This document shows, in pieces, positions 10,435 through 62,706 of a DNA stretch of 64,000 nt; position 1 is the stretch's first letter; each line of letters opens with the position of its first letter. The notes below the pieces were generated by a model. It saw only the letters and a list, made by a program, of their open reading frames with translations. It was not told the origin of the DNA and did not search any database. The position numbers and the translations under genes were made by a program. The stretch is from Pachysolen tannophilus NRRL Y-2460. Lineage: Eukaryota. The DNA lies in NCBI GenBank assembly GCA_001661245.1, contig KV454016.1, positions 165,868 to 229,867 on the forward strand, in the 5' to 3' direction.

Positions 10435-10833
10435 TTCAAAAAATTTTTTTTTTGCTTTTATTAATAAAATATATATCTAATAATATCTATCTCATTCTCT
10501 ATAACTTTTAACTAAATAATATTATCGGAAAGAAGTCTAGTTAAGGGCGGTTAATTGAAAAATCAAAAATTTTTGAAGCAAAAAAAAAAAAAATTGCCAA
10601 TTTGAGTTTTTAATTTTTTTTTCTCTTTCTTTCTTTATTAATAGAATTAATTTATTTTGTAACAATTTTTTTATTTTTGCTTAATTTATTTGATTGTCTT
10701 AATGGTTTTTAATTTAATTGCTAAATACAAAATTGTTTTAAAATTAAATATATAAATAATTATAGTTATTTTTTATCCTATTTGATTCAGGGCCAATCTT
10801 GAAGCAAATTTTGATTTTTATCGCATTGTGTTT

Positions 10834-10905
10834 GCCTCTTTGGCCCAGTGGTAAGGCACCTCACTCGTAATGAGGCGATCGTCGGTTCGATTCCGACAAG
10901 AGGCA
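10834..10905 (+). tRNA. tRNA-Thr(CGT)
   Basis: Acceptor GCCTCTT/AAGAGGC+A; anticodon arm CCTCA-CT CGT AA-TGAGG; GTTCGATTC T-arm. Confidence 0.95.
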
Positions 10906-10984
10906 AAAAAAAATTAAAAAATTAAAAAAATTAAAATTTTCAAAAGATACTTTTTTTATTTATTCTATTTAGTTAGGTTGCTAT

Positions 10985-12353: not shown

Positions 12354-15300
12354 ATGCAGCCTTGTAAGAACTTTAGCAATGAAATGAGTGCTTTGGGTGA
12401 TGATGTTGAAGAAAACATGGCAAAAAGTTTTAGGATTCATATGTATATGTTTCTTGATTTGAAAAAAGACTTGTTGTTGTTAGGATGTTGCTTGGTTGTT
12501 ACCATTATAGCTTCACTATCTCCTACTGCTATGACCATATTGTTGGGGAAAGTATTTGGTGTTTTATCCAGTTATGTAGATGGGGAATATGATACTTTTG
12601 GAGATTTTATAAATCATTTGAGACTTAATTGTTTCAGTATTTTGGCATTAGGTGCTCTTACTTTGATTTTTTCTTGGATAATGATTACTCAATGGATGAA
12701 ATTAGGTGAAATTCAACAAAGAAGAGCAAGAAAATTATTATATGCATCTTTTTTCAAAAAAAAAATCTCTTGGTTTGAAGAAAATTTAGAATTAAATGGT
12801 GATATTGTTCAAGTTAATAGATGTTTTGAAGAATTAAGATGTGGACTTAGTGAATGCAGTGCATTGTGTTTACAATGCATCTTTTCAATAATTGCATTGA
12901 TTTTAACAAGTTTTATATATTCTTGGTCATTAACCTTGATAATATTAAGTTCAACCCCTTTGATTTCTTTTATTGCTTATTTTTTCACTAGATTAATAGA
13001 AAAACATACAGTTTTAGAAAATTTACAAACAACAAATTCAGCAAAGATTTTAGATAAATATTTAACATCTCCAAAGATAATCAAAATTTTTGGTACAGAA
13101 AGTAAAGAATTGCAAAAATTTATTATTTCAAATGGAAATTCTAAAAAAGAATTTGAAAAATTATGTTTATATTCTTCATTAAATTTAGGTATCTTGAGAG
13201 CATTACTTTTAACAATGTTTGTCCAAGGTTTTTGGTATGGATCATATTTAGTTAACAATAAAAAATTATCAAGTGGAACCGTATTAACATGTTTTACTTG
13301 TTGTTTAATGATTGCAGAAACTTTTAATGGAATCACAGAACAATTATTAATTTTCCAAAAAGCAAACATTGCTTTAAAGAAAATTGTTAAATTTATTGGA
13401 ATTGAAAATTTGAATTCATCACAACATGGAAATATAAAAGATACAATTTCATTATACCCAAGACAAGTTGAATTTAATATTATTTTTGAAGATATTAATT
13501 TTTCATATGAATCAAGACCAGAAGTAATGGTTTTAAAAAATTTAAACATCTTTATACAAGAAAATCAAACAACTTTTATTGTTGGTAAATCAGGATCAGG
13601 GAAATCAACATTGGCATCACTATTAATGAAATTTTATAAATTACAAACAGGTAATATCTTTATAGGTGGTTTTAACATTAAATATTTAGATTCAGATTGG
13701 ATTTCTGATTTTATTACATTAGTTCAACAAGATGTCACTTTATTCAAAGATACAATTAAAAATAATATTGCTTTAGGGCTTGCTTCAAGACAAGAAATTA
13801 ATAAAGTACCAGAAAGTACATTAGACGAAGCTATTCAAATGTGTTTATTACAAAAAATGATTAACGATTTTCCTGAAGGTTTAAATACAGAAATTGGTGT
13901 AAATACTGGAGTTACACTTAGCAATGGTCAACAGCAAAGAATCGCTTTAGCTAGAGCCAGAATAAGAGATACTCCGATATTAATACTTGACGAGTTTGTT
14001 AGTGCTTTGGATATTGCTTCTAGAGAATTATTGGTTAAAGCTGTTAAGGCTTGGAGAAGGGGTAAAACTACAATCATAATGACTCATGAATATTCCCAGA
14101 TAGATGATGATGATTATATTTATGTGATGGAAAATGGATCTGTTATTGAATCCGGATACAAAAAAGAATTATCTTGTTATGATAATGGAGAGTTTAACAA
14201 ACTTTCAAATTGTGAACAACAAAATGTGGTCAGCAATGAAAATAATGAAAATAATGAAAATAATGAAAATAATGAAATGGAAAATCCTTTTGAAGATGAA
14301 TACAAGAGTGAACTTTATTATAATGAAAGCGAATATGAGACTCTTGCTTCACCTTCAGAGCAAGTTCAAAACAAAAATGAAAATCCATTCTGTGATACAG
14401 AGTCCTTAAAGATTTACAATAGTAGGACCACTGCAATTAATACAATTGAAATTGAAAATGATGAAATATACAATAAAGAAAAAGAATTCATTTTGACTAC
14501 CGTAGGAAGAAGATTGTCATCAAGCATTTTGAGAGCTTCAAATTCATTTTTTGCTTCAACACTGAACCACGAAACTCAGGATGATTCATATGATATTGAA
14601 AAATTGGCTCTAAAAATGACTAATCAACAACTTGAGCCTACATTTGCTAGATCAATGAAGCAAAAAAATAAAACTATCCTCAATAATACACAAGAAGTTA
14701 AAATCTGCAATGAATCAGAAGCAAACGAAGAAAACAAAGAAAACTTGATGAGTTTATTAGAAATTTTCAAATTTATGAATAAACGCATAAAGTCAAAAGG
14801 ACTCATTTTCCTTGGAATCTTGTTCTCTATAGCTAATGGTGTAATAAATCCTATGTTTTCCTGGGCTTTTAGCCGGTTACTAGTTGGGATTATTCCAACA
14901 AGTGGGAATAACTATGACAGCCTGTACTTATTAAAATGGGCTTTAATAGTTGTATTATTTGCTGTTCTTGATGGCTTAACTTCTTTTTTGAAAAGATTTT
15001 TGTTAGGTATTGCAACGGAAAATTGGATATTTCAAATAAGAAACGAAGTCTATGAGAAGTTATTACAACAGGACCTAACTTGGTTCTCGCAACAACTGAC
15101 CAAACCGGCCGAAATCTCTGCCTTAGTATTAAATGATGCAAGAGATTTGAGAAACTTGATTTCCGAATTTTTGAACATTTCCGTAACTGTTGTAGTTATG
15201 ACATTACTAGGTCTAATCTGGTCAATTGTAGAAGGTTGGAAGCTATCACTTGTTGGAATTTCATTGATACCAACGTTTATCTTAATCACTTTGTGCTATG

Positions 15301-16553
15301 GAGGTATTTTACTGTCAGCAGAGAATAAGTACAAATCTGCAATAGCTGCATTAGAAAATCTCATGCATGAAACAATTGTTGGTGTTAAAACTATCAAATG
15401 TCTTCGATTGAACTCTTATTTTTGGGCTAAGTTTGATGAAAGGTTCTTCGAGTTGGCTAAAACCGGAAATAGAAGAGCAATTGGTACTGGATTTGGAGTT
15501 TCGGTTTTTGTGTTATTATGCTATCTGGCTCAATCCATCTTATTATACTACGGGATGAGGTTAGTTGGTTTGGGAGAATATTCATCTTCACAGTTGATGA
15601 AAATCTATACATTGCTCTTATTTACCATTATGAGTGCCTCTCAGTTGATTAATCAAGTTCCTGATGTTGCTAGGGGTAAACGAGCAGGAAGTCATTTGAT
15701 TAAATTGTTATCTTTGGAACTGTCAGTTACAGAATTTTCAGGGAAATCAAAACCTGAATTTAATAGCATTAAACATGATTGCACAATCATTAGGTTTAAC
15801 GAAGTCAATTTCTCGTATCCTTCCAAGCCAACAGTTCCAATATTGAAGAAAATGGATTTTCAAATAAAAGTTGGAGAAACTGTTGGAATCATTGGGGAAT
15901 CAGGTTCTGGTAAATCTACAATTTTAGCTTTATTAGCAAAGTTATTTTCAACAGATCTGAATGAAATATATATCGGGGATTCAGATATAAATGATATAGA
16001 CACAAAATATTTAAGAAGAATGATTTCTGTGGTTTCGGCTAACGCAATGTTTTTTGAAGGTTCTGTTGAATCTAATTTAACATATGGGTTGTTGCTGGAA
16101 GAATATACTCAAGAAGATATTGTCAAAGCTTTAAAATCAGCAAACATTTACGATTTTGTGATATCTTTACCTCAAGGGTTAGAGACAATAATTGGAGATT
16201 CTGCAAACTTGTTGATTTCAGGAGGACAAGCGCAGAGACTAGCTATTGCAAGAGCGTTATTAAGGAATCCAAAAATTTTAATCCTAGACGAATGTACTTC
16301 TGCGCTCGATGCTCATAGTACTACGAAAATAGCTGAATTAATTAGGGACAATCTAAGTTTCAACAAGAACATTACCACTTTAATCATCACTCATTCTGAA
16401 TTTTTAATGAAAACTGCAAATAGAATTTTATGTCTAAAGGAAGGGGAGATTTGTGAAGAAGGTTCATTTAATGAATTATACAGATCACGGGGGGAATTAT
16501 ACCGCATTGTTTCTGCTGGCAAGAACAGTACCATCACTGACATAACCACCTAG
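12354..16553 (+). CDS. STE6: a-factor exporting ABC transporter (ABCB, full size)
   Basis: Two TMD-NBD halves; Walker A GKSGSGKST and GESGSGKST; ISGGQAQRLAIARALLRNPKILILDECTSALD. Next to UBA1, as in S. cerevisiae. Start ATG uncertain (12354 or 12384). Confidence 0.9.
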   Translation: MQPCKNFSNEMSALGDDVEENMAKSFRIHMYMFLDLKKDLLLLGCCLVVTIIASLSPTAMTILLGKVFGVLSSYVDGEYDTFGDFINHLRLNCFSILALGALTLIFSWIMITQWMKLGEIQQRRARKLLYASFFKKKISWFEENLELNGDIVQVNRCFEELRCGLSECSALCLQCIFSIIALILTSFIYSWSLTLIILSSTPLISFIAYFFTRLIEKHTVLENLQTTNSAKILDKYLTSPKIIKIFGTESKELQKFIISNGNSKKEFEKLCLYSSLNLGILRALLLTMFVQGFWYGSYLVNNKKLSSGTVLTCFTCCLMIAETFNGITEQLLIFQKANIALKKIVKFIGIENLNSSQHGNIKDTISLYPRQVEFNIIFEDINFSYESRPEVMVLKNLNIFIQENQTTFIVGKSGSGKSTLASLLMKFYKLQTGNIFIGGFNIKYLDSDWISDFITLVQQDVTLFKDTIKNNIALGLASRQEINKVPESTLDEAIQMCLLQKMINDFPEGLNTEIGVNTGVTLSNGQQQRIALARARIRDTPILILDEFVSALDIASRELLVKAVKAWRRGKTTIIMTHEYSQIDDDDYIYVMENGSVIESGYKKELSCYDNGEFNKLSNCEQQNVVSNENNENNENNENNEMENPFEDEYKSELYYNESEYETLASPSEQVQNKNENPFCDTESLKIYNSRTTAINTIEIENDEIYNKEKEFILTTVGRRLSSSILRASNSFFASTLNHETQDDSYDIEKLALKMTNQQLEPTFARSMKQKNKTILNNTQEVKICNESEANEENKENLMSLLEIFKFMNKRIKSKGLIFLGILFSIANGVINPMFSWAFSRLLVGIIPTSGNNYDSLYLLKWALIVVLFAVLDGLTSFLKRFLLGIATENWIFQIRNEVYEKLLQQDLTWFSQQLTKPAEISALVLNDARDLRNLISEFLNISVTVVVMTLLGLIWSIVEGWKLSLVGISLIPTFILITLCYGGILLSAENKYKSAIAALENLMHETIVGVKTIKCLRLNSYFWAKFDERFFELAKTGNRRAIGTGFGVSVFVLLCYLAQSILLYYGMRLVGLGEYSSSQLMKIYTLLLFTIMSASQLINQVPDVARGKRAGSHLIKLLSLELSVTEFSGKSKPEFNSIKHDCTIIRFNEVNFSYPSKPTVPILKKMDFQIKVGETVGIIGESGSGKSTILALLAKLFSTDLNEIYIGDSDINDIDTKYLRRMISVVSANAMFFEGSVESNLTYGLLLEEYTQEDIVKALKSANIYDFVISLPQGLETIIGDSANLLISGGQAQRLAIARALLRNPKILILDECTSALDAHSTTKIAELIRDNLSFNKNITTLIITHSEFLMKTANRILCLKEGEICEEGSFNELYRSRGELYRIVSAGKNSTITDITT

Positions 16554-30729: not shown

Positions 30730-31836
30730 TCATTCATCTGGATTAGCAATCCTTAGTCGATTACCAGTTTCCTGAGAGGCATCGGGCAAACTTCCAATGC
30801 TTAATCTTTTAGTTCCTCTTTCCAGTGCAGCTCTTTCTTCATTAGACATAAACACATAATCATTTGCTGTGGAATCATCATCTGTTGATGAATTTGAATG
30901 GAAATTTTTCCTATTCAATGCATTTTCTGTAACAAAATCTGTTATTATTTGTTTTGTTGATTTTTCTAAATCTTCATTTTCTTTTTGTTTTTGAGATTTC
31001 TTTCTATAGTAATAGAACAAGAACAGCAGAATCAGTATTAACAGCAGACCTACAACGGATCCAACCACTATTCCTGCAATTGACCCTCCACTTAAACTTT
31101 TCTTTGAAGATGAAGTTGACTTATTTGAATCCAATGATGATGATGGAGATGTTGCCTGTGCGGTTTCTGTCACCACAGACTCAGATGCAGAATTGGATTC
31201 AGTGACAACCACTAAGGAACTTGAGCTTGAGCTTGAGCTTGATGACGTTGATATCGAAGAAGAGGATGTGGTTGTTGGGGTCAGTGAAGATGATGATGAC
31301 GACGATGATGACGATGACGATGATGAACTTGAAGAAGAGGAGGATGAGCTTGAAGATGATGTGGAAGTTGAGGATGACGATGACGATGAACTTGACGAGC
31401 TCGATGAACTTGATGAACTTGACGAACTTGATGATGAGCTACTTTCGCTGGTGCTGCTACTACTACTGCTGCTGCTATCAGATGAATCCGAGTCATCACC
31501 CGTTGTGTAAACTGAAAAATAATCTGACCCACCACATTTTTCATATGGCCAGCCGGCACAATCCGTGCTACAATTACTATCATCATCTGCCGAACCCGAA
31601 GGAGAAGTGTTACCGCAATAACAGTCTGTACCGTTAATCATTGCGGCAACAGAGTAATCGGAACATTTCTCTTCACAATATGACGGCGATTGATATGTAT
31701 ACTCGTCATTATAAGTTAACGATGATTCAATAGAGGAAGCTTCATAACATCCCAAATATGAAAAAGTTGCTCCTGATATTAATGGCGAGTGAATTAAAAG
31801 TATTCCTAATAAATTTCTTATTTTAGCACAATGCAT
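30730..31836 (-). CDS. WSC-family cell-wall stress sensor
   Basis: Signal peptide, Cys-rich WSC domain (YLGCY…CYCGN…CAGWPYEKCGG), Ser/Thr stalk, one TM, C-terminal LRIANPD. Confidence 0.9.
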   Translation of the reverse strand: MHCAKIRNLLGILLIHSPLISGATFSYLGCYEASSIESSLTYNDEYTYQSPSYCEEKCSDYSVAAMINGTDCYCGNTSPSGSADDDSNCSTDCAGWPYEKCGGSDYFSVYTTGDDSDSSDSSSSSSSSTSESSSSSSSSSSSSSSSSSSSSSSSSSTSTSSSSSSSSSSSSSSSSSSSSSSSSSLTPTTTSSSSISTSSSSSSSSSSLVVVTESNSASESVVTETAQATSPSSSLDSNKSTSSSKKSLSGGSIAGIVVGSVVGLLLILILLFLFYYYRKKSQKQKENEDLEKSTKQIITDFVTENALNRKNFHSNSSTDDDSTANDYVFMSNEERAALERGTKRLSIGSLPDASQETGNRLRIANPDE

Positions 31837-38276: not shown

Positions 38277-39734
38277 TCAATGGCCAGACCATTCAATAGA
38301 GTTTAAATCAATACCTTCTTTAACCATTTCCCATAATGGAGAAAGTTCTCTCAAGAATGTGACTCTATGGTTTATTGCAGAGATGACATAATCGATTTCT
38401 TCTTCGGTGGTGAATCTACCAATACCAAATCTAATTGAAGAATGAGCTAAAGCATCATCTGCACCTAAAGCATGTAAGACATAACTTGGTTCTAAAGAAG
38501 CTGAAGTACATGCGGAACCAGAACTTAATGCTATATCTTTTAAAGCCATCAATAAGGATTCACCTTCTATATAGGCAAATGAAATATTAACACAACCTGG
38601 ATAACGATGAATTGGAGAACCATTTAATTGAGTATGTTCAATTGATAATAAACCATTAATCAATTTATTTGATAATTTTTCAATATGTTTTTTATCTCTT
38701 TCACTTTCAGCCATTGTTAATCTTGCAGCTTCACCAAATCCACAAACCAGAGCTGGAGCTAAAGTACCTGATCTAAGACCTCTTTCTTGACCACCACCAT
38801 TTATAATTGGTTCCAATCTAACTCTTGGTCTTCTTCTAACAAAACATGCACCAACACCTTTTGGACCATAAATCTTATGTGAAGAAATTGACATCAAATC
38901 AATATTATATTTATTAACATCTAATGGAATTTTCCCATATGCTTGAGCACCATCTGTATGGAAAAAAACTTTATGTTTTCTACAAATTTTACCAATTTCT
39001 TCCAATGGTTGAATAACACCAATTTCATTATTTACAGCCATTATAGATACTAAACAAGTATCTTTTCTTATTGCTTTTTCTAATTGATCCAATTCAATTA
39101 AACCATTAGAATTAACTGGTAAATATGTAACATCAAAACCTTCATCTTGTAAATGCCTAGCAGAATCTAAAACACATTTATGTTCAGTTTGAGCAGTAAT
39201 TATATGTTTTTTAGTTTTTTTATAAAATCTTGGAACACCTTTAATACACATATTATTTGTTTCAGTTGCACCTGAAGTGAAAATAATTTCTTTTGGATCA
39301 GCTCCAATAACTTTAGCTATATTTTCTCTAGCTTTTTCAACTTCTTTCTCTGTTTCCCAACCATAAGCATGTGTTGATGAATGAGGATTACCATATAATC
39401 CAGTATAAAATTGTAACATTTTATCCAAAACTCTTGGATCAACAGGAGTTGTTGCTTGCATATCCAAATAAATTGGTCTTGTTCCATACAAATTATCATC
39501 TCTTTCAGCATTCTTTAAACTAATAGGTGATCCATCAGGAGCAGTCGGTGTTGTATTAACAGTAGCATTATTTATATTTGTTGGAGATGGTTTAAAATCA
39601 ACACTTGTACTTGAAAAAAACCTTGTGGCGGCTAAAATTTTTATATCTTTTCTTCCTATAATTTGACTTGGAAAATATTTTTGACATACATCTAAAGATA
39701 ACTTTTTAATCATATTATTCTTTCCTATCATCAT
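38277..39734 (-). CDS. NFS1: Mitochondrial cysteine desulfurase
   Basis: [20 protein letters not shown] (PLP Lys), [18 protein letters not shown]-terminal IEWSGH. Exact start ATG uncertain. Confidence 0.97.
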
Positions 39735-41645: not shown

Positions 41646-41749
41646 CTCCTCATCAGGGGCTCGAACCCTGGACATTTCGGTCGACTTCTTTGTCTCGAAA
41701 TGAAACAATCCTTAAAAGCCGAACGCTCTACCAACTGAGCTAATAAGGA
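41646..41749 (-). tRNA. tRNA-Lys(TTT) with ~31-nt intron
   Basis: TCCTTATTAGCTCAGTTGGTAGAGCGTTCGG-CT TTT A…intron…CCGAAATGTCCAGGGTTCGAGCCCCTGATGAGGAG. Confidence 0.95.
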
Positions 41750-47711: not shown

Positions 47712-47813
47712 ATTTAATAAACATATAGACTAAACCCAAAAGCAAACGTTTTCTCCCCTTATTCTTATTCGGTTTTTTTTTTTCTTTTTTTTTTTTTTNT
47801 TTTTTTTTGTTTT

Positions 47814-48145
47814 NNNNNNNNNNNNNNNNNNNNNNNNNNNNNNNNNNNNNNNNNNNNNNNNNNNNNNNNNNNNNNNNNNNNNNNNNNNNNNNNNNNNNNN
47901 NNNNNNNNNNNNNNNNNNNNNNNNNNNNNNNNNNNNNNNNNNNNNNNNNNNNNNNNNNNNNNNNNNNNNNNNNNNNNNNNNNNNNNNNNNNNNNNNNNNN
48001 NNNNNNNNNNNNNNNNNNNNNNNNNNNNNNNNNNNNNNNNNNNNNNNNNNNNNNNNNNNNNNNNNNNNNNNNNNNNNNNNNNNNNNNNNNNNNNNNNNNN
48101 NNNNNNNNNNNNNNNNNNNNNNNNNNNNNNNNNNNNNNNNNNNNN
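47814..48145. other. Assembly gap (N run) bounded by poly-T and poly-A
   Basis: Continuous Ns. Confidence 0.99.
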
Positions 48146-49815: not shown

Positions 49816-51047
49816 TTACTCAAATCTGTAATTTTGTGGTTGTTGCTGCCCATAGCTGTTGCTCATATCCTGATAGCTGCGGTTGTAATTTCCGTAATAT
49901 TCCTGACCGAATGGTTGTTGAGGGAGTCCTCCACCAAACGCAGATGGGTTATATTTGTTATATTGAAGCCCCGAAAACTGCAGCAGAGGTTGAGGGATCA
50001 TCTGAGGAAGTCTCAGCTGCAGTTGTTGCTGTAGTTGTTGTAGTTGCAGCTGCTGTTGTTGTTGTTGTTGCAGCTGTTGTTGTTGATGTTGATGTTGTTG
50101 TTGACGTGGTACGAGTTGATGATGCGATGGCAGCACTTGCTGTTGCACTTGTTGTACTTGTTGTTGTAGTTGTGTGTTTGATTGCTGCTGTTGTAAGCTC
50201 ACCGATGTATTTGTAGACAACACCCTTTGAGTTGAGACTGGAGTTGACTTACTGTTGGATCTTAATTTCATATACTCTTTGTAATACTCTTCAGTAACAC
50301 CAAAAGATTCAGGATCTCTTAAAAATAATATTTTAATAATTTCTTTACATTGTTTATCGGTAAAATGTTTACCAGTTGATTTTAATAATTCTTTTGCTAA
50401 GAATCTCCATTTCTCAACTTCTCCTTCGTCTACTAAACTCTGAAGGGTGGCAATATCTTCCGCGTTACATTCAGATGTACCTCCTCCTTGTTGACCGATT
50501 AAAACCTGATATCTATTTCTAGCAGCTAAGAAACTTCCAACTCCAGTTATATCTGCTACGTCAACCCATGATTTACCAGCTTTTTTCAATTGAACAATCA
50601 TTTGATCTTGTTCTTTCGAATATTTGGAACGTCTTCTTGCCCTACGAGGATGGTTTTCTTGTAATAATGACTCTGGATTAATAGGAGCAATTGATAGAGG
50701 AGGATGTGGTAATACTTTGGCTAAATTTTCAACCAAAGGACTAACTGGTGCATTGTGGTTAACAATCTGTTGTTGCAGAACTTTTGGTTGAGTATAATAG
50801 ATCGGATTGGCAATGCTAGGACCCCCAACACTAGTTACTGTACTATTCTTAGCATAAGTTTGAAATTGTTGTTGTTGTTGTTGTTGTTGTTCCCTATAAT
50901 ATTGGTGATGTGGATGCTGTAAATCTGCTTCATATGACAACTTGTTATCTCCAAGTTTGGTGTTATTATTATCACTACTATTATTATTATTATTATTAAT
51001 ATTATTATTATTATTATTATTAATATTATTAATATTATTATTATTAC

Positions 51048-51101
<54 letters not shown>

Positions 51102-51105
51102 TCAT
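49816..51105 (-). CDS. Myb/SANT-like domain protein with poly-Asn N-terminus and poly-Gln C-terminus (putative regulator)
   Basis: RRRSKYSKEQDQMIVQLKKAGKSWVDVA…ARNRYQVL is Myb-like; long (AAT)n and (CAA/CAG)n tracts. Confidence 0.75.
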
Positions 51106-51963
51106 TGTTCATGCAAGTAAAAACTATTCTTTGACTAACTTCAATCAACAATATTGTTATTGAAAAATATTATATATGTTATATTCTGTTATGATATTAT
51201 TATCAAAAAAATATTGTTCATTCAAATATATAAAAAATAATTATAGTCAAATGCTCCAAAAAAATTCTTAAATACTTCAAAATAACTAGTATTAAACAAA
51301 TTGTTTAAAAAAAAAGTACATATTATTAAAAGTATCAGACAAATTATTCATCGAAGATTTAAAAAAACTTCTGTAATAAATAATAACCTGATATTTTTTT
51401 CTACATAAATCTTCATGTTCCTTACGGTAGCTCCACTTATTTGGTACTTCTGCTGCGCATATATTGGCTAAATTTAATTTCACTAGAAAAACTCTGGTGA
51501 TTTATTCTAATGCGCATACTGAAAAAAAAAAAAAAAAAAACAAAAAAAAAAAATCTAACTTCGAGAATCCATGATAAAGTACTTCAATTTATGCGGTATA
51601 TCGTATTCTATACTTAATCTGTGATCTTTATAGTGAAAGTTTTAAAATTAAAACCTTTCATATCTTGCTAGATTTCTGTTATCAACTGCCACCATTTTCT
51701 ATTATTAACCTTTTATTGATAAGAGATATGACTATTATTTAAAAATGCACAAAAGCCAAAAACGTCCATCCACACTTTTCTTTACGTATGCGAACACCGA
51801 TGGGACTATTGTTAGCTAGCTACAAATCTGACTTTTCTTTTCGGCCTCGAAAAATAGAAAATTTACTAGTAAAATAACTCTCTTCGAGAAAAGCTATTTC
51901 CTTAATAGGAAAAAAAAAACTACTGAAAACGATAAAAAAAAAAATTGTTTTTATTTCAAGATC

Positions 51964-52035
51964 TGGACGTGCCCGGGTTCGAACTGGGGTCTTTTTCACC
52001 TGAAGAAAACGCGCTAACCACTGCGCCACACGCCC
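51964..52035 (-). tRNA. tRNA-Ala with CAG anticodon (decodes CUG as Ala)
   Basis: GGGCGTG TG GCGC AGTGGTTA GCGC G TTTTC TT-CAG-GT GAAAA AGAC CCCAG TTCGAAC CCGGG CACGTCC A. G3:U70, A73, short variable loop, downstream T-run terminator. Confidence 0.93.
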
Positions 52036-55000
52036 TTAAATACTAACTTTTAATGACAAAATTATCTATATTTATTGATAAAACTAAATTTAAATAGTTT
52101 TAAATCCACATTGATATAATGCTTCAACTAGCAAAATATACTTAGCCTAACGGAAATTATGTAGATATAATCGCTACAAATTTTTTAAAAACCCGTTTTT
52201 ACTATCTTTATAGCTACAATATAAATAAAATAATCTCTTCAACTCGTATTCGACACTTTAGCCTAAACGATTCAAATCAATTAAGAAGTTCTTGATTTTT
52301 CTCCTTTGGGATTCTAAATCTTAAAACGAACACAGTACCAAAAATACTATATTAAATAAATCAAAAATGAAAACACAATCATTAAGTGCCCTCAAAAATA
52401 AGGCTAGATATTGATTGAGATCAATAACTATTTACATCAAATGATGTTTGTTAAACAATAAATTGAGGCTACAAGACAACTCAAACGATTGATAATCTGA
52501 AAAGATTTATCCTAATTAGAGATATAGACTTGTTTTCGCTTAGCTTCACCATTATGTGTCCAAGTGCTCATTATTTTAAATGACAATGATTTTTAAATAA
52601 TAATTGTTTACTGAACAAGTAATTTTTTTTTCAAAAAGAGACGAAGAGAAACTAAAATAACCTTACACCTCAAACCCTTATATATTTTCCCGTTACATTT
52701 TTCTTCATTGAGACCTATTACTACTGTCATGAAAAATTCAAATACTAAAGACTGCTTCCAATAAATCTTGAAAGAAAACTTGTTACAAAACTCAAACAAA
52801 GTAATTAGTATCGAAGGATTACATCGTTCCTTTACATGCAAACTTGAAAAAATACACTTTATCTCAAATTAGGGAAACAAAAAAAGAGTTCAGCATTACG
52901 TTGAATTTTTATGAAAGTTAAGGGCTTACTTCCTTATCTTTGTAACTACAATTCTTTGAGTATGAGTGCACTGCAGCTCCAATTCGAATTTCAACTAACC
53001 GGTTAGTAGCCCAGACAATAACTGCGAAAGAGACTATACACAATAAAAGACATCTAATATCAGATTTTCTCTTTGTGATTTGAAAGCAAATATCAAAAGA
53101 AATCAAATGAAATATCCAGTAAAAGCGAAAGCCTATTTCAAAAACAGTGAAATAAAACGTTTTGAAATCTATTCTGTTTTCATAAACTTCATACATTTGT
53201 CTAATACATGAAACCACTTTGTTTTTTTTTGTTTTTTTTTAATTAATCTTTCTGTTTAGCAATATCCTTCATTAGCTATGGAAAAAATTTCGGCTCGAAA
53301 AAAATTTCAGCATCCAAACTATATTTGAATTAAAATAAATTTCACTGAGCTGTATCTTCACCAACTTCACCTTCAGCTAATTGAAGAAACTAATACATAT
53401 TTTAAAAGTAAACGCTACAGCTAGGTCAATGAGTAAACATACTCTTCTCCATTGACTCGATAAACAGCGAAATATCAAAACTCAATTTTATCAAAAAGTA
53501 AACTTGGACCTTACTCGCTAGATAGGATCAATGGATTTTGTTGCTCGTTTGTAAAACGCAAAAGCGACTACAGGTTTATAAAGGTGTTTCTTCAAAACTT
53601 TGATCTCGCAGAACATTAAGAAAGTTATATATTCAACAACTAAAAAACTTCAAAGTAAGAGTAAAACAAATACAATAGGGTTCTGTTAGTTAATAGTAAA
53701 TTTTAGTTGATATAACTTAATTTAGATTAACCGAAATTTAGAGAGATTTCTAAATCAAATTTTTTTCTTACTGATTTAATTTCTTTAACCAAATTGTATT
53801 AATGTATATTTGGAAACCCATTACTCAATCAATATACACCGTCGTTTGCATTCCATGAAAAAAAAAAAAAGAATTAAAATTCAGGTTTCAGAGATTGACT
53901 AATTAAAAACTTTTAGATATTACTGTGAACGCCAAGAACCTACTGAACAACCCCCAAGAGACTATGGACATTACCATTCTATTTTCATCATATTGGTTCG
54001 TTTCAAATAACAGTTCTGAAGTCCTATTACAAATCAACAACTACAATATAATATCAAGTCCCCTTTGACAAGTTTGTCCTCCGAGAAGAAGAGAGTTGAT
54101 CATTGAAGAAGCCAAACAAGGACCAATATCTATTTAAAGGTAGATTTGTAGGAAAAAAAACATTGATGGGCTTCTATTTTCTTTACCCTCTATTTTCGAA
54201 CTTGTTATTTTTGAATATTAACTTTCTTTATGTAATTGAAGTACGAAGTTCACTGTTAAGCTTTGACTTAACCAGTTGGACTAATGGTCTCAGTTTACTT
54301 AAAATGTAAGGCACTCACTCGCTCATATCTGAGATTCCTAATGTTCTGAAGTTGTTACCCCTGTTTAGCAGGATAGTGTAGCCGATACCGTTATACAGTC
54401 CTCCATATTCTCGCAACACCTTAAACTTACATTGTAATGAGATGTAATACTTATCAAAAGTAATTGATTGTTACAAGGCAAAATAAAATTAAAATACTAA
54501 ACTTTTCAAAATAAGAATCTGGAAGCAGAAAACACTATTCGTTTGCTCCGATGCGATTAAAATATATCTAATACCTTGGGTTCGTTAATTTTTATTTCAG
54601 ACTTTAATGAGATTCAAAACAAAACACTAATTTTGCTAGCTATACGTTTAGTCTGTAGCCTAGCGCTGATGGGGGGCAATTTATATGGAAAGTCAATTGC
54701 AAAGTTTTAAAGAAAAGAGATAAAAAATAACGCTTTTCCGATTCTGTATGTTGTCCTCATTCTAAAAATCTCAATTTTTATCTCTAAGAACTGTTCTCAG
54801 TGGAGCTTTTAGTTTTCCGAGTAATTAACCTGTTGGATAATAAATTTGCTTTTGGGATGAAATCCATTGAACCTACCTACTATTGTATGTGGATATAGAA
54901 GAATGCTGATATTTCCATATACTGAACAAGAGAATTGGATTCACGTATTTTTTTGAAAATACTTCTTCTCTCTTTCCTTATTACTTGCGAAGCAGCACCG

Positions 55001-58000
55001 AATTTGCTATTTGAACTTAAAAGAAGATGCAGGGACTTCAGAAGCTCTTTTAATCGTTTGCTTTCATTTGAACTTGAGTTTCTCTAGCAACATAAATGCT
55101 CCCCAACAGTTCTAGTTATGATGCAATAATTTATATAGTATAGATTTAGAACGATATAAGCAAATAGCATTGGGCCACTCACAACCTAAAGGTGAAAAAA
55201 AAAAGTCCATATGCAAAATCTCAAGATGGATCCGTCAGGGTATGAACAGTTTGGATCAGTTACTAACCTTTAAATCTTGAAAATAAATATGATGCATTGC
55301 GTATCAAGGGAATATCAATATCATTCCTTTACTTCGTTAGTGACTAATTGATCACGACCATTTTTCAGAGCCCTCTTCCTGTTCACTTCTTATCTCTCAT
55401 CTATTATTTAAAATTCACCCTGAAGAGTTTCTGAACTAAGTTATTTGGATTTGCATTTAGACATAGGGGAGAAGATCATATTTTTAGGATCGATTGTTGA
55501 TAAGTCATAAACCTCTAAATCCATACTAACTGACAATTATTTGAGTGTTTTGTTTAATTTGCTTGTATTCTTTTTCGTGCCACAATTTCCTTTACCTTAG
55601 TAATAAATCATTTATTATTTATATCCCAACTGTAGAAGTGGTTCAATCGAAGCAAATTCCAAAAGAAAAACAATCTGCTAACGACGATGCAAGATATTTA
55701 ACGGTTATCTAAAACTAAGTTGATTGCAGCGAAAAACGAAGAAGTCAGAAGTGAGTTCTGTGATCAAAACTTAGATTTCCAGAATAATTGCTCCTAACCT
55801 TAAAAATCACGATTCGTTTATACACGAGAGCGCTCACTCAAAGTTCTGATTACACCTTCAGAAATACTTAGATAAGGCAAAACCAGAACCTGGAAATTTG
55901 TTAGTTTTAGAGAATTCAATTTAAATAAGGATATCATTACAACGTGTTTCTTTCAGGATATTGAATTCTCATCTCAAAAATGTAAAACTCATCAATGGAA
56001 TCTTAAACGAATTTACTTCATTTTAGTCGTAGAAACAACCAGAATCAGAAGCTTTAATTGGTTTTGTTTAGTTACTTATCCTGAGGAATTTATGGAGAGA
56101 GATAGTCGGAATAGAAAATCAGCAAAAATTATAACACATCTTCGTTCAGCTGACATCAATTTTTTTCTACTTTTTTATTAGTTACTTAGTAAACATTTTT
56201 AGTTTCCCCCAATGCAGAATGGGAAGCTTGTGCTAAAGCTTCGAGTCTAGATGTGAATTCTAGTTAATATGAGCTGTGTGCGAAAATTTATTTAGTGCCT
56301 TAAAAATAAAAAGTATTCCGAGTGCTGTATTTGATGTTTCATTTGCATTTGTGTTTTCGGAAGATGTCAGGAAGAATAACTTTAAAGCATTTTTTCTACA
56401 AGATCAGGGACAATAACTTCAACAAATCGAACATAATCTACGGGTTTCGTGAAAGAACTTGAGTTCAGACAAAAGTTAAGTTAAGGAATAATTGAATCTG
56501 ATTTGTAATATCAAAAACTTGTGATCAATTAAATGGATTTTTAGTTCAGATTCTTCTTTTAGCTAGTATGAGGTACCTTCTCTAATACTTTTGAAGTATA
56601 CTAATATCCTTAATATTTTCTATTTAGCAAAGAATGTTTACTGTAAGAGCAAAACAAAGATTAGGAGCTCTGTTGTTTTTTAATTTTTTCACGCTTTTTT
56701 ATGGATGTTTTTTTAATTTTCTGCAAAATAAAAGTAAAAGAGAAACTAACTTAGGATTGTCTCTTGAATCTTTTGTATCTTATTGAAAGATACAGGCCAT
56801 ATTTTTGTTTACGAGTTGCCTTTCATTTTACAGTTTATGAGGTTAGTAACTTCAACGTTAGGTATTCCCTGAATGTATCGATTGACCAGGCAGGTATAGG
56901 TAAGTTCCTTCGCAAGTGATGTAGCAGTTTTTTTCGAAGAAAATAACTTAATTATTGTTTCGTCACTATATTCTACGTTGACTGAAATAGTTTGAAAACA
57001 GTAAAGTGATTTATAGAACTCTTTAATAGAGAACTAGTTTTTTATTCTAAACTGGTGAGATAGAAAATACCTGGCAAATAAGAAGCTATTACTAGATTTT
57101 GCTAATTTTTATTTCTAAAGAAAAAATTCGAGCTCGCAATACATCGAAGCTATCTATGTACTACATCTATTTCTCTTAGGACATTCATTGATTGCAAGGC
57201 CCAAACGGATTGTTATTTCTTTAGGATCACTTACTAAATATTTGAAATGCGTTCTCTGTCTGGTGCATGAGTTTCGTTATACTGTTTATCTCCTTGTATG
57301 CTGTTGTTTCGAATAGTATCGTAATAACAAATACTTTTATTTAGTTTTTAGAATAATTTTTTGAAATAATGTGTTACCGACAGCAAATGTTTTATTTGAA
57401 GGCAGGATTCGTTTTTCGGTGCCTTTCAATTAAACATTTCCTTACATACATAGAGGATTAGTGATTCTGGTATTTTGCCCTTGATTTTTTACCTTCTTCA
57501 ATTTTAAGAATATAGAAATTACATTGATAAGGCAAATAAATTTCTTCTACTTTGTATTTCCAAAAGGCTCAAAAGTCACTTTTTGCGGAACGTGAAATCA
57601 AGTTTCAGTGCAGTAAAGGCAATTCATAATATGATTACAATTAGAAATAACAGTAAGTCATAGCTATTGTTATAGAGACCAATAAAACCTGGCAAAGTTG
57701 AATTTTTATTTTGTAACTAGACTCTAATTCGTAATAAATATTCTTCCTAGAAAATGTATCTCAATTATAGAAAAGATTGATATTTGGTATAGGATTGAGA
57801 TCGGAAGGTCGCTGTTAGATAAAAACAATGTTCTGTTTTGATGAAAAATAAAACGATGGATGCGAATTGGATATGGTCCTCAAGTTTCAAAAGAATGTGT
57901 TTTTCTGGAGGACGTAGTCTTAGATCATCAGATTTTAAAAAATAAGGTAGTCTTCTAGAAAGAAACTTTAAAGATAAATTCAAGTAATACCAACTTATGA

Positions 58001-58261
58001 AGATGATAAAAATCATAATGAAGAATTTGTGAAAAAGTTATGAATTTTGTTGGTTACAACTTTTAAGCATAGGTAATTAGTTTATCCGAATATCGTCAAT
58101 TTGGATATTAGCGACCATTGTCGTTAGATAGAAATAATTAAATCTTGTATTGATAGTTAGATCATATTTTTACACTAAACTCGGGCATGTTGAATTACGT
58201 TTTGTAAGTTCAAAAAGAAAAAAAGTTCTATTGTCTATTCAATGTGAAATAAAATCAATAG
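52036..58261. other. 6.2-kb gene-free block, candidate regional centromere
   Basis: No ORF of 100 aa or more; by far the longest intergenic region; flanked by orthologues of centromere-linked genes. Confidence 0.6.
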
Positions 58262-61099: not shown

Positions 61100-62706
61100 A
61101 TGTCTTCTTCGTCGGATATATTGGATGTATTGAATATCACAAAAGATGAACATCTGGCTAATAAGGTTACGAGGAAAAATCAGCTTTCTGTTAAGAATAA
61201 TAAGAAAGCAAGACGTAAGTTAATTTTTTTTTCTTGTTCTTTTCTTTTAACGTTATACTGACAAAATGATTTGTAGAAAATGGTATGAATCGTGAATTGT
61301 TTAACTTGATTGGGTCGAATATTCCTCCTGTTATGTTGACGAATAAAAAAAGTAATAAGTTTAAGCAGAGATTGAATTCGAATAATAAGCCAACACCTTG
61401 GACATGGTGTGAATTTAAAAATAATGCAAGAGGTGATAATTTGAAGTTATATCATTGGGTTAAAGGCTCTGCTGATTTGAATAAAGACAAAGTTTATATT
61501 TTTGAAAAATTTAATAGTCATTTAGTTCTTCCAAAAATTGAAAGTGAAAGTGATTATAACGAAAAAAATTTACAAGATGATGATTGGAGTTATGAAGAAA
61601 CCAAATATTTATTTGAATTATGTAGTGATTATGATTTAAGATGGATTGTAATTCATGATAGGTATCAATTTGATGATAGAAGTATTGAGGATTTGAAAGA
61701 AAGATTTTATAAAGTATCTGAAAAACTTTTAAGTTCATCAGATATAATACCAGATGAAAAAACTAGAAATATAATTAATTCATTACAATCATTTGATAAA
61801 CAAAAAGAAATTGAAAGAAAAGAATATTTAGTTAAATTGTTGAAAAGAAGTCCAGCTGAAATTGCTGAAGAAGAAAGTTTGGTGATAGAATCAAGAAAAT
61901 TCGAATTAGCTGCTAAAAAAATGCTTACAGAAAGAGCTTCGTTATTAAGAATATTAGATTCTCCACAGGCAACAGCTTCAATACAACAGTATCAAACTTC
62001 ACATGGCTTAACACAATTATATAATGCTTTAATGATTAGCGATAAGCACAAGAAGCGCAAGGTTGAAACTCCAATTCCCCCTCAAATACCGCCTGCTGCT
62101 GCGACTCCTTCTGCACTCATAGCGGAAGCTCAAGCCCAAAATAAACAACAACAACAACAACAACAACTACAACAACAACAGCAACAGCAGCAGCTGCAAT
62201 TACAACAAGCTCATGGCCACCACCATCATCATAAAATGTCCCAATCTGGTTCACAACAACAACAACAACAACAACTATCGCAGCAACTGTCACCGCAACT
62301 GTCACAACAACAGCAGAAGAGAAAATTTTCAGTCAGTTCGTTATTGCCTCCTGAAAAGCAACATAAGAAAAATTCAAATTCACAAATTGCAAATTTATTA
62401 GCAAAAAAATTGACACCAGAAGAACAAATGTTATATGGCATAAGCTATCACTCAGAAAAATTGACTCCCGGTGTTTCATTAAGGTCAGCAAAGATTACTT
62501 CGTTTAGGCCAGCTGTTCAAACAAGAATTAATAGTGTCTTGAATGAATTGGGTATTGCACCAAAACCAACAATACCAACTGCTAAGGTTTGTGAAAAGTT
62601 TGAAATTTTATTACACACCATTAATTTATTATTAGATGCAAAGAGGCAAACTGATAAATTGGAAACAGAAATAAAAATAATTGCGTCACAAAGGCAAAAG
62701 CAATAA
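61100..62706 (+). CDS. SWC4: SWR1/NuA4 subunit (DMAP1 family); exons 61100-61214 and 61277-62706
   Basis: MSSSSDILDVLNI exon 1, GTAAGT at 61215, TACTGAC branch, TAG ending 61276; GMNRELFNL, SANT WSYEETKYLFELC…DLRW. Confidence 0.93.

Follow-up and report, generated by a model that had tools for sequence, protein, structure and literature searches.

Reassignment of a sense codon in a nuclear genetic code is, to our knowledge, very rare: only three cases are known, all of them in budding yeasts, and the change of CUG to alanine in Pachysolen is one of them. This case gave its name to the order Alaninales and has an NCBI code table of its own. In Pachysolen tannophilus, LC-MS/MS placed alanine at 97.2% of 907 fully supported CUG positions, and deviations at CUG were no commoner than at AUG (Muhlhausen et al. 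2016, PMC4937558). According to the available sections of the same source, the responsible tRNA carries (i) the 5' sequence G1GGC4, (ii) the G3:U70 pair, (iii) the discriminator A73, and (iv) a leucine-like anticodon followed by G37, and it has no extended variable loop. The clade that reads CUG as alanine comprises Pachysolen, Nakazawaea and Peterozyma (Krassowski et al. 2018, PMC5951914).

We analysed a 64,000-nt stretch of yeast DNA (hereafter the window) and read the minus-strand gene at 51964–52035 as the putative tRNA-Ala(CAG) of P. tannophilus (Alaninales), the molecule behind NCBI code 26; we put the probability of this reading at about 0.95. The tRNA-Ala(CAG) of P. tannophilus is an already known element that was published in 2016: a real gene, and no new discovery. 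The coordinates of the gene, of its parts and of the other tRNAs in the window are collected in Table 1.

Table 1. Positions of the tRNA-Ala(CAG) gene, its diagnostic parts, its presumed terminator and the two other tRNA genes of the window.
Feature	Position	Strand	Basis and remarks
tRNA-Ala(CAG) gene (putative identity)	51964–52035	−	72 nt, without intron and without encoded CCA; ARAGORN and Rfam RF00005
G3 of the G3:U70 wobble pair	52033 (partner U70 at 51967)	−	Read from the sequence and the Rfam match
Discriminator A73	51964	−	Read from the sequence and the Rfam match
Anticodon CAG, positions 34–36	52000–52002	−	Sequence and ARAGORN
T-arm segment, canonical positions 52–62, A52 opposite C62	51975–51985	−	Rfam non-standard pair
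Eleven consecutive T (tRNA strand), presumed RNA polymerase III terminator	51934–51944	−	Putative role
tRNA-Thr(CGU)	10833–10906	+	ARAGORN; Rfam 68.1 bits
tRNA with a 32-nt intron, anticodon UUU (Lys) by eye	41646–41749	−	Rfam 54.1 bits; missed by ARAGORN

The origin of the window was established from its protein-coding genes. The open reading frame (ORF) of a STE6-like ABC transporter (12354–16553, plus strand) has as its top match PACTADRAFT_86333 of Pachysolen tannophilus NRRL Y-2460, with 99% identity. Across 1323 aligned residues, this record differs from the standard-code translation at nine positions: eight are all eight CTG codons of the ORF (L in the translation, A in the record) and one lies at a gene-model junction. 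For a glycogenin-like ORF, the translation and the database twin disagree at the four CTG codons and nowhere else; for the NFS1 ORF, the one CTG codon is likewise the sole difference from the database protein. All 13 CTG codons of the three ORFs are therefore written as A (8/8, 4/4 and 1/1), which shows the identity of the organism and not the decoding of the codon, because the database proteins were themselves translated under the published code. Since the three ORFs equal the database proteins apart from L or A at CTG and one junction residue, the window is P. tannophilus DNA, the records of which use NCBI table 26 ('Pachysolen tannophilus nuclei: CTG=A'). In the NCBI taxonomy, P. tannophilus belongs to the order Alaninales, and the match to PACTADRAFT_86333 together with this lineage puts the organism inside the Pachysolen, Nakazawaea and Peterozyma clade. 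A first-pass annotation, made from the sequence alone, had remarked that the code is already described in the Pachysolen and Nakazawaea lineage; it had also held that the tRNA would be novel only if the organism lay outside this clade, and as the organism is P. tannophilus itself, that claim to novelty falls away.

The window has a G+C content of 25–32% and contains compact yeast genes, including UBA1, the STE6-like ABC transporter, MAS1, ALG11, BCS1, an isopropylmalate or isocitrate dehydrogenase, NFS1, a septin and a cullin. ARAGORN and Rfam together identify only three tRNAs in it, namely the Thr(CGU), Lys(UUU) and CAG tRNAs, and a long T run also lies downstream of the lysine tRNA gene. 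The STE6-like frame is open over 1399 codons, and its 1323-aa database model lacks residues 1–10, 69–83 and 620–670; the annotated introns of this model may be gene-prediction artefacts, because the reading frame continues through the omitted stretches without a stop. Between the genes for the septin and the glycogenin-like protein, letters are masked at 47799 (1 N) and 47814–48145 (332 N). The ∼6.2 kb adjoining the CAG tRNA (52036–58261) contain no ORF longer than 106 codons from stop to stop, no RNA family and no repeat of 40 nt or more, and six tested of the nine short ORFs within this stretch gave no Pfam match. It is unusually empty for so compact a genome.

Within the window, the 21 ORFs that reach 250 codons or more comprise 11,275 codons, 58 of them CTG. 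The standard code would mistranslate these 58 codons, and CTG in all genes of the window should be translated with table 26. A WSC-domain ORF (30730–31836) has five CTG within eight codons (codons 264–271, at 31024–31047 on the minus strand); they lie in a hydrophobic, probably membrane-spanning segment that becomes alanine-rich rather than leucine-rich under code 26. At 49816–51105 (minus strand) and 61285–62706 (plus strand), several CTG codons are scattered in glutamine-rich tracts, as expected if these codons derive from CAG by single mutations; read with code 26, the tracts are interspersed with alanine.

ARAGORN, run on the window, reports the CAG tRNA with its anticodon at position 34 and labels it Leu, a label derived from the anticodon alone. 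The Rfam model RF00005 matches the gene over model positions 1–71 of 71 with 57.6 bits, the gathering score being 29; in the search of the whole window with 4227 families, this corresponds to E = 8.3e-10. Read letter by letter, the acceptor stem consists of G1-C72, G2-C71, G3.U70, C4-G69, G5-C68, U6-A67 and G7-C66; with 5' GGGC, G3:U70 and A73, the alanine-identity set is present. The D loop comprises 8 nt. The anticodon stem (UUUUC/GAAAA) has five Watson–Crick pairs and closes the loop UUCAGGU, in which G37 stands at 51999. The variable loop is AGAC, and at 4 nt it is not the long variable arm of class II (leucine and serine) tRNAs; a serine-tRNA reading of the gene was rejected for the lack of this arm. 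In the T stem (CCCAG/CCGGG), A52 (51985) faces C62 (51975), and this is exactly the one non-standard pair that Rfam marks. The first-pass annotation had listed the CAG anticodon at 52002–52000, G3:U70, A73 and the 4-nt variable loop, and as odd details the AU-rich anticodon stem, G37 and the A52/C62 mismatch; all of these were found again at the same places.

The thermodynamic fold of the tRNA (MFE −23.5 kcal/mol, z = −0.59) is no stabler than those of shuffled sequences; of the cloverleaf it shows the acceptor and D arms but lacks the canonical anticodon and T arms. We do not take it as evidence against a tRNA because the covariance model fits well.

These features suggest how the molecule may work. 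Alanyl-tRNA synthetase recognizes the acceptor stem of its tRNAs and disregards the anticodon. On this established knowledge, the enzyme is predicted to charge the tRNA with alanine through G3:U70, A73 and the 5' GGGC, irrespective of its CAG anticodon. The anticodon would pair with CUG, and alanine would be inserted where the standard code has leucine; the short variable loop would set the molecule apart from leucine and serine tRNAs. G37, where ordinary alanine tRNAs have A, fits an anticodon that ends in G36 and is probably methylated to m1G37, which would hold the reading frame.

We compared the gene with other tRNAs by scanning metagenome contigs with its first 26 nt, four positions of which were left open, and running ARAGORN on the hits. 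The pattern occurs at no fewer than 112 loci; ARAGORN made at least 122 tRNA calls on the loci listed and none at seven loci. Among the matches listed, 105 calls bear the pattern, and because the set was picked by its 5' half, it tests which anticodons accompany that half rather than serving as a full tRNA phylogeny: 104 are tRNA-Ala (81 AGC, 21 UGC and 2 CGC), one is tRNA-Arg(UCU) and none is tRNA-Leu or tRNA-Ser. The remaining 17 calls listed are neighbouring tRNA-Ile genes. The first-pass annotation had likened the 5' half to that of yeast tRNA-Ala(AGC); our comparison was with these environmental tRNA-Ala genes, which have the half in common with the window's tRNA. The 105 calls reduce to 22 distinct sequences (21 Ala and 1 Arg), and U70, A73, A37 and a 5-nt variable loop are present in all 21 of these distinct tRNA-Ala. 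In the tRNA-Arg that shares the 5' half, position 70 is C and position 73 is U, so this half alone does not bring the alanine determinants along. Our tRNA is 63.0–76.7% identical to the 21 distinct tRNA-Ala listed, the two best of which have the anticodon UGC. These values are close to the published identity of 62.1–77.0% between the Pachysolen tRNA and 752 yeast GCN-decoding tRNAs, and the UGC matches to the origin from a tRNA(UGC) that has been proposed for it (PMC4937558). On this comparison, the body of the tRNA is of the alanine kind rather than of the leucine or serine kind.

We then considered the codon that this tRNA would read. Columns of homologue alignments were scored at the codons of the STE6-like gene, glycogenin, BCS1 and NFS1 (116–142 homologues aligned for each gene); a column was usable if at least half of the homologues were present, which left 15 of the 17 CTG codons. 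Leucine is the commonest residue in two of the 15 CTG columns, against 202 of the 293 columns of the other five leucine codons in the same genes (Fisher p = 2.3e-5). The behaviour of CTG in these alignments is not that of a leucine codon. A Codetta-like sum of column log-odds ranks alanine first for CTG (−5.2), serine second (−8.6) and leucine seventh (−17.6). Every sum is below zero, since the majority of the CTG codons fall in variable columns, and the lead of alanine over serine by 3.4 log units, with alanine dominating 2/15 columns, is a weak preference when taken from the window alone; what decides for alanine is the published proteomics (PMC4937558). As a control for the method (three genes), the standard meaning was recovered for 37/37 codons, and with only 14 columns it was recovered in 93.5–100% of 200 draws.

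Two CTG codons occupy columns dominated by alanine, which is found in 73 of 118 homologues at glycogenin codon 30 and in 80 of 136 at BCS1 codon 358, beside the Walker B aspartates. Glycogenin codon 95 has leucine in 62 of 119 homologues (52%), and NFS1 codon 329 (38748–38750, minus strand; ORF 38277–39734), inside the conserved stretch SGTLAP-LV-GFGEA, has leucine in all 119 budding-yeast homologues; P. tannophilus Nfs1 probably carries alanine at this otherwise invariant leucine. Aligned by eye with S. cerevisiae Uba1, UBA1 codon 332 lies in a variable stretch and falls on a leucine, and no such match is seen at codon 987. At the MAS1 CTG codons 91 and 248, the S. cerevisiae and Yarrowia proteins have Q/D and P/P, respectively. 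The most frequent residue in 8/15 CTG columns is one of P, Q, V and L, whose codons a single mutation can turn into CTG. Recent point mutation may thus be the source of many CTG codons, which would also explain CTG at a former leucine site without ambiguous decoding. CUG codons in the reassigned clades have been described as rare and mostly located at poorly conserved sites (Krassowski et al. 2018, PMC5951914).

The alternative that survives best, although we consider it improbable, is that the tRNA has a mainly alanine identity with low-level leucine charging via A35, G37 and A73, by which CUG would be slightly ambiguous, as with the tRNA-Ser(CAG) of Candida. G37 takes the place of the A37 that all 21 distinct tRNA-Ala among the matches listed possess; A35 together with m1G37 is highly conserved in leucine tRNAs, and m1G37 causes partial leucine mischarging of the Candida tRNA-Ser(CAG) (PMC4937558). 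CTG also occupies the invariant NFS1 leucine and the glycogenin column with 52% leucine, and 8 ambiguous and 18 non-alanine CUG positions have been published (PMC4937558). However, the same source reports such rare cases to be equally frequent at AUG, an unambiguous codon, and its authors argue that mischarging is prevented by the absence of a long variable arm. Moreover, 13 of the 15 CTG columns are not dominated by leucine, and a single mutation from TTG, or from another CTN codon, to CTG accounts for CTG at a former leucine site with no need of ambiguity. Leucine charging at a low or condition-dependent level, in a molecule that combines the alanyl-tRNA synthetase determinants (G3:U70 and A73) with the leucine-typical A35, G37 and A73, is improbable. 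If it did occur, some leucine-containing protein would still be made from a few genes with CUG at an essential leucine site, NFS1 codon 329 being an example, and the reassignment of CUG in Pachysolen would be slightly ambiguous and not clean.

A second, still less probable alternative is that the gene is a decaying or silent copy, its T stem being weak and its B box deviant, and that CUG is read by another copy or by a tRNA encoded elsewhere. By the consensus of such promoters, 52018–52028 (minus strand, tRNA positions 8–18) is presumed to be the internal A-box of RNA polymerase III and 51975–51985 (minus strand) the internal B-box, which has A in place of G as its first letter. RNA polymerase III would transcribe the gene from these internal promoters and stop at the downstream T run, which begins 20 nt past the 3' end of the tRNA (51944 to 51934). 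Contigs from three public runs (two studies), one of which is possibly the source of the window, span 51800–52200 with zero letter changes inside the tRNA gene. They differ only beyond the gene, where two homopolymer runs are each longer by one A; the 11-T run is one letter longer in the contigs of two of the three runs. As the gene is identical in all three, the A52/C62 mismatch is not a one-off assembly error. This mismatch and the T arm that the thermodynamic fold does not recover could be signs of decay, but the Rfam score is well over the gathering score, the anticodon stem, although altered on both sides in comparison with the nearest tRNA-Ala, still has its five pairs, a presumed terminator lies downstream and the gene is unchanged in three assemblies. 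In addition, the 58 CTG codons of the 21 long ORFs need a decoder, and the literature, in the parts available, describes one tRNA(CAG) type for P. tannophilus. We regard a silent copy as very improbable.

An ordinary tRNA-Leu(CAG) reading CUG as leucine, to which the CAG anticodon, the ARAGORN label and a G37 and A73 common to leucine tRNAs might point, is already contradicted by the 4-nt variable loop in place of a long arm, the G3:U70 pair, a 5' half found in 104 tRNA-Ala and 0 tRNA-Leu among the 105 pattern-bearing matches listed, the 2/15 against 202/293 leucine-dominated columns and the published proteomics, which give alanine (PMC4937558), and its probability is practically negligible.

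In brief, the proposal of the first-pass annotation that an alanine-identity tRNA turns CUG into an alanine codon is supported by the tRNA features, by the alanine type of the 5' half (104/105 among the matches listed) and by CTG columns that are not those of leucine. The tRNA-Ala(CAG) would be the molecular cause of the CUG-to-alanine change in Pachysolen. That a recoding tRNA was spotted in raw sequence indicates that such reading can find recoding tRNAs. Occasional leucine charging of a tRNA that bears A35, G37 and A73 we judge unlikely.

The tRNA may be placed among known systems as follows. It has in common with ordinary fungal tRNA-Ala (AGC, UGC or CGC) the 5' half up to position 26 except for the D loop, G3:U70, A73 and the overall arms. 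In contrast to the nearest tRNA-Ala, it has (i) the anticodon CAG instead of NGC; (ii) G37 instead of A37; (iii) a variable loop of four instead of five nucleotides; (iv) two U-A pairs in the anticodon stem where the latter has C-G and G-C, with both sides altered and pairing kept; and (v) A instead of G at position 52. The changes on both sides of the anticodon stem fit a duplicated tRNA-Ala that stayed functional.

The published tRNA-Ala(CAG) of P. tannophilus comes from the same organism and has the same features (GGGC, G3:U70, A73, CAG, G37 and the variable loop), and we detected no difference in a comparison of described features rather than of single letters (PMC4937558). The available sections of this source contain no mention that we could find of the A52/C62 mismatch or of the AU-only part of the anticodon stem. 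The tRNA-Ala(CAG) of Nakazawaea and Peterozyma, compared by description, belong to other genera of the same clade and represent the same kind of reassignment through a tRNA-Ala with a mutated anticodon (PMC5951914). The tRNA-Ser(CAG) of the CUG-Ser1 (Candida) and CUG-Ser2 (Saccharomycopsis/Ascoidea) yeasts captured the same codon with a synthetase that also ignores the anticodon, and most Candida examples have G37 beside the CAG anticodon, as does the Pachysolen tRNA (PMC4937558). However, tRNA-Ser(CAG) has a long variable arm and inserts serine, whereas the Pachysolen tRNA has a 4-nt variable loop and G3:U70.
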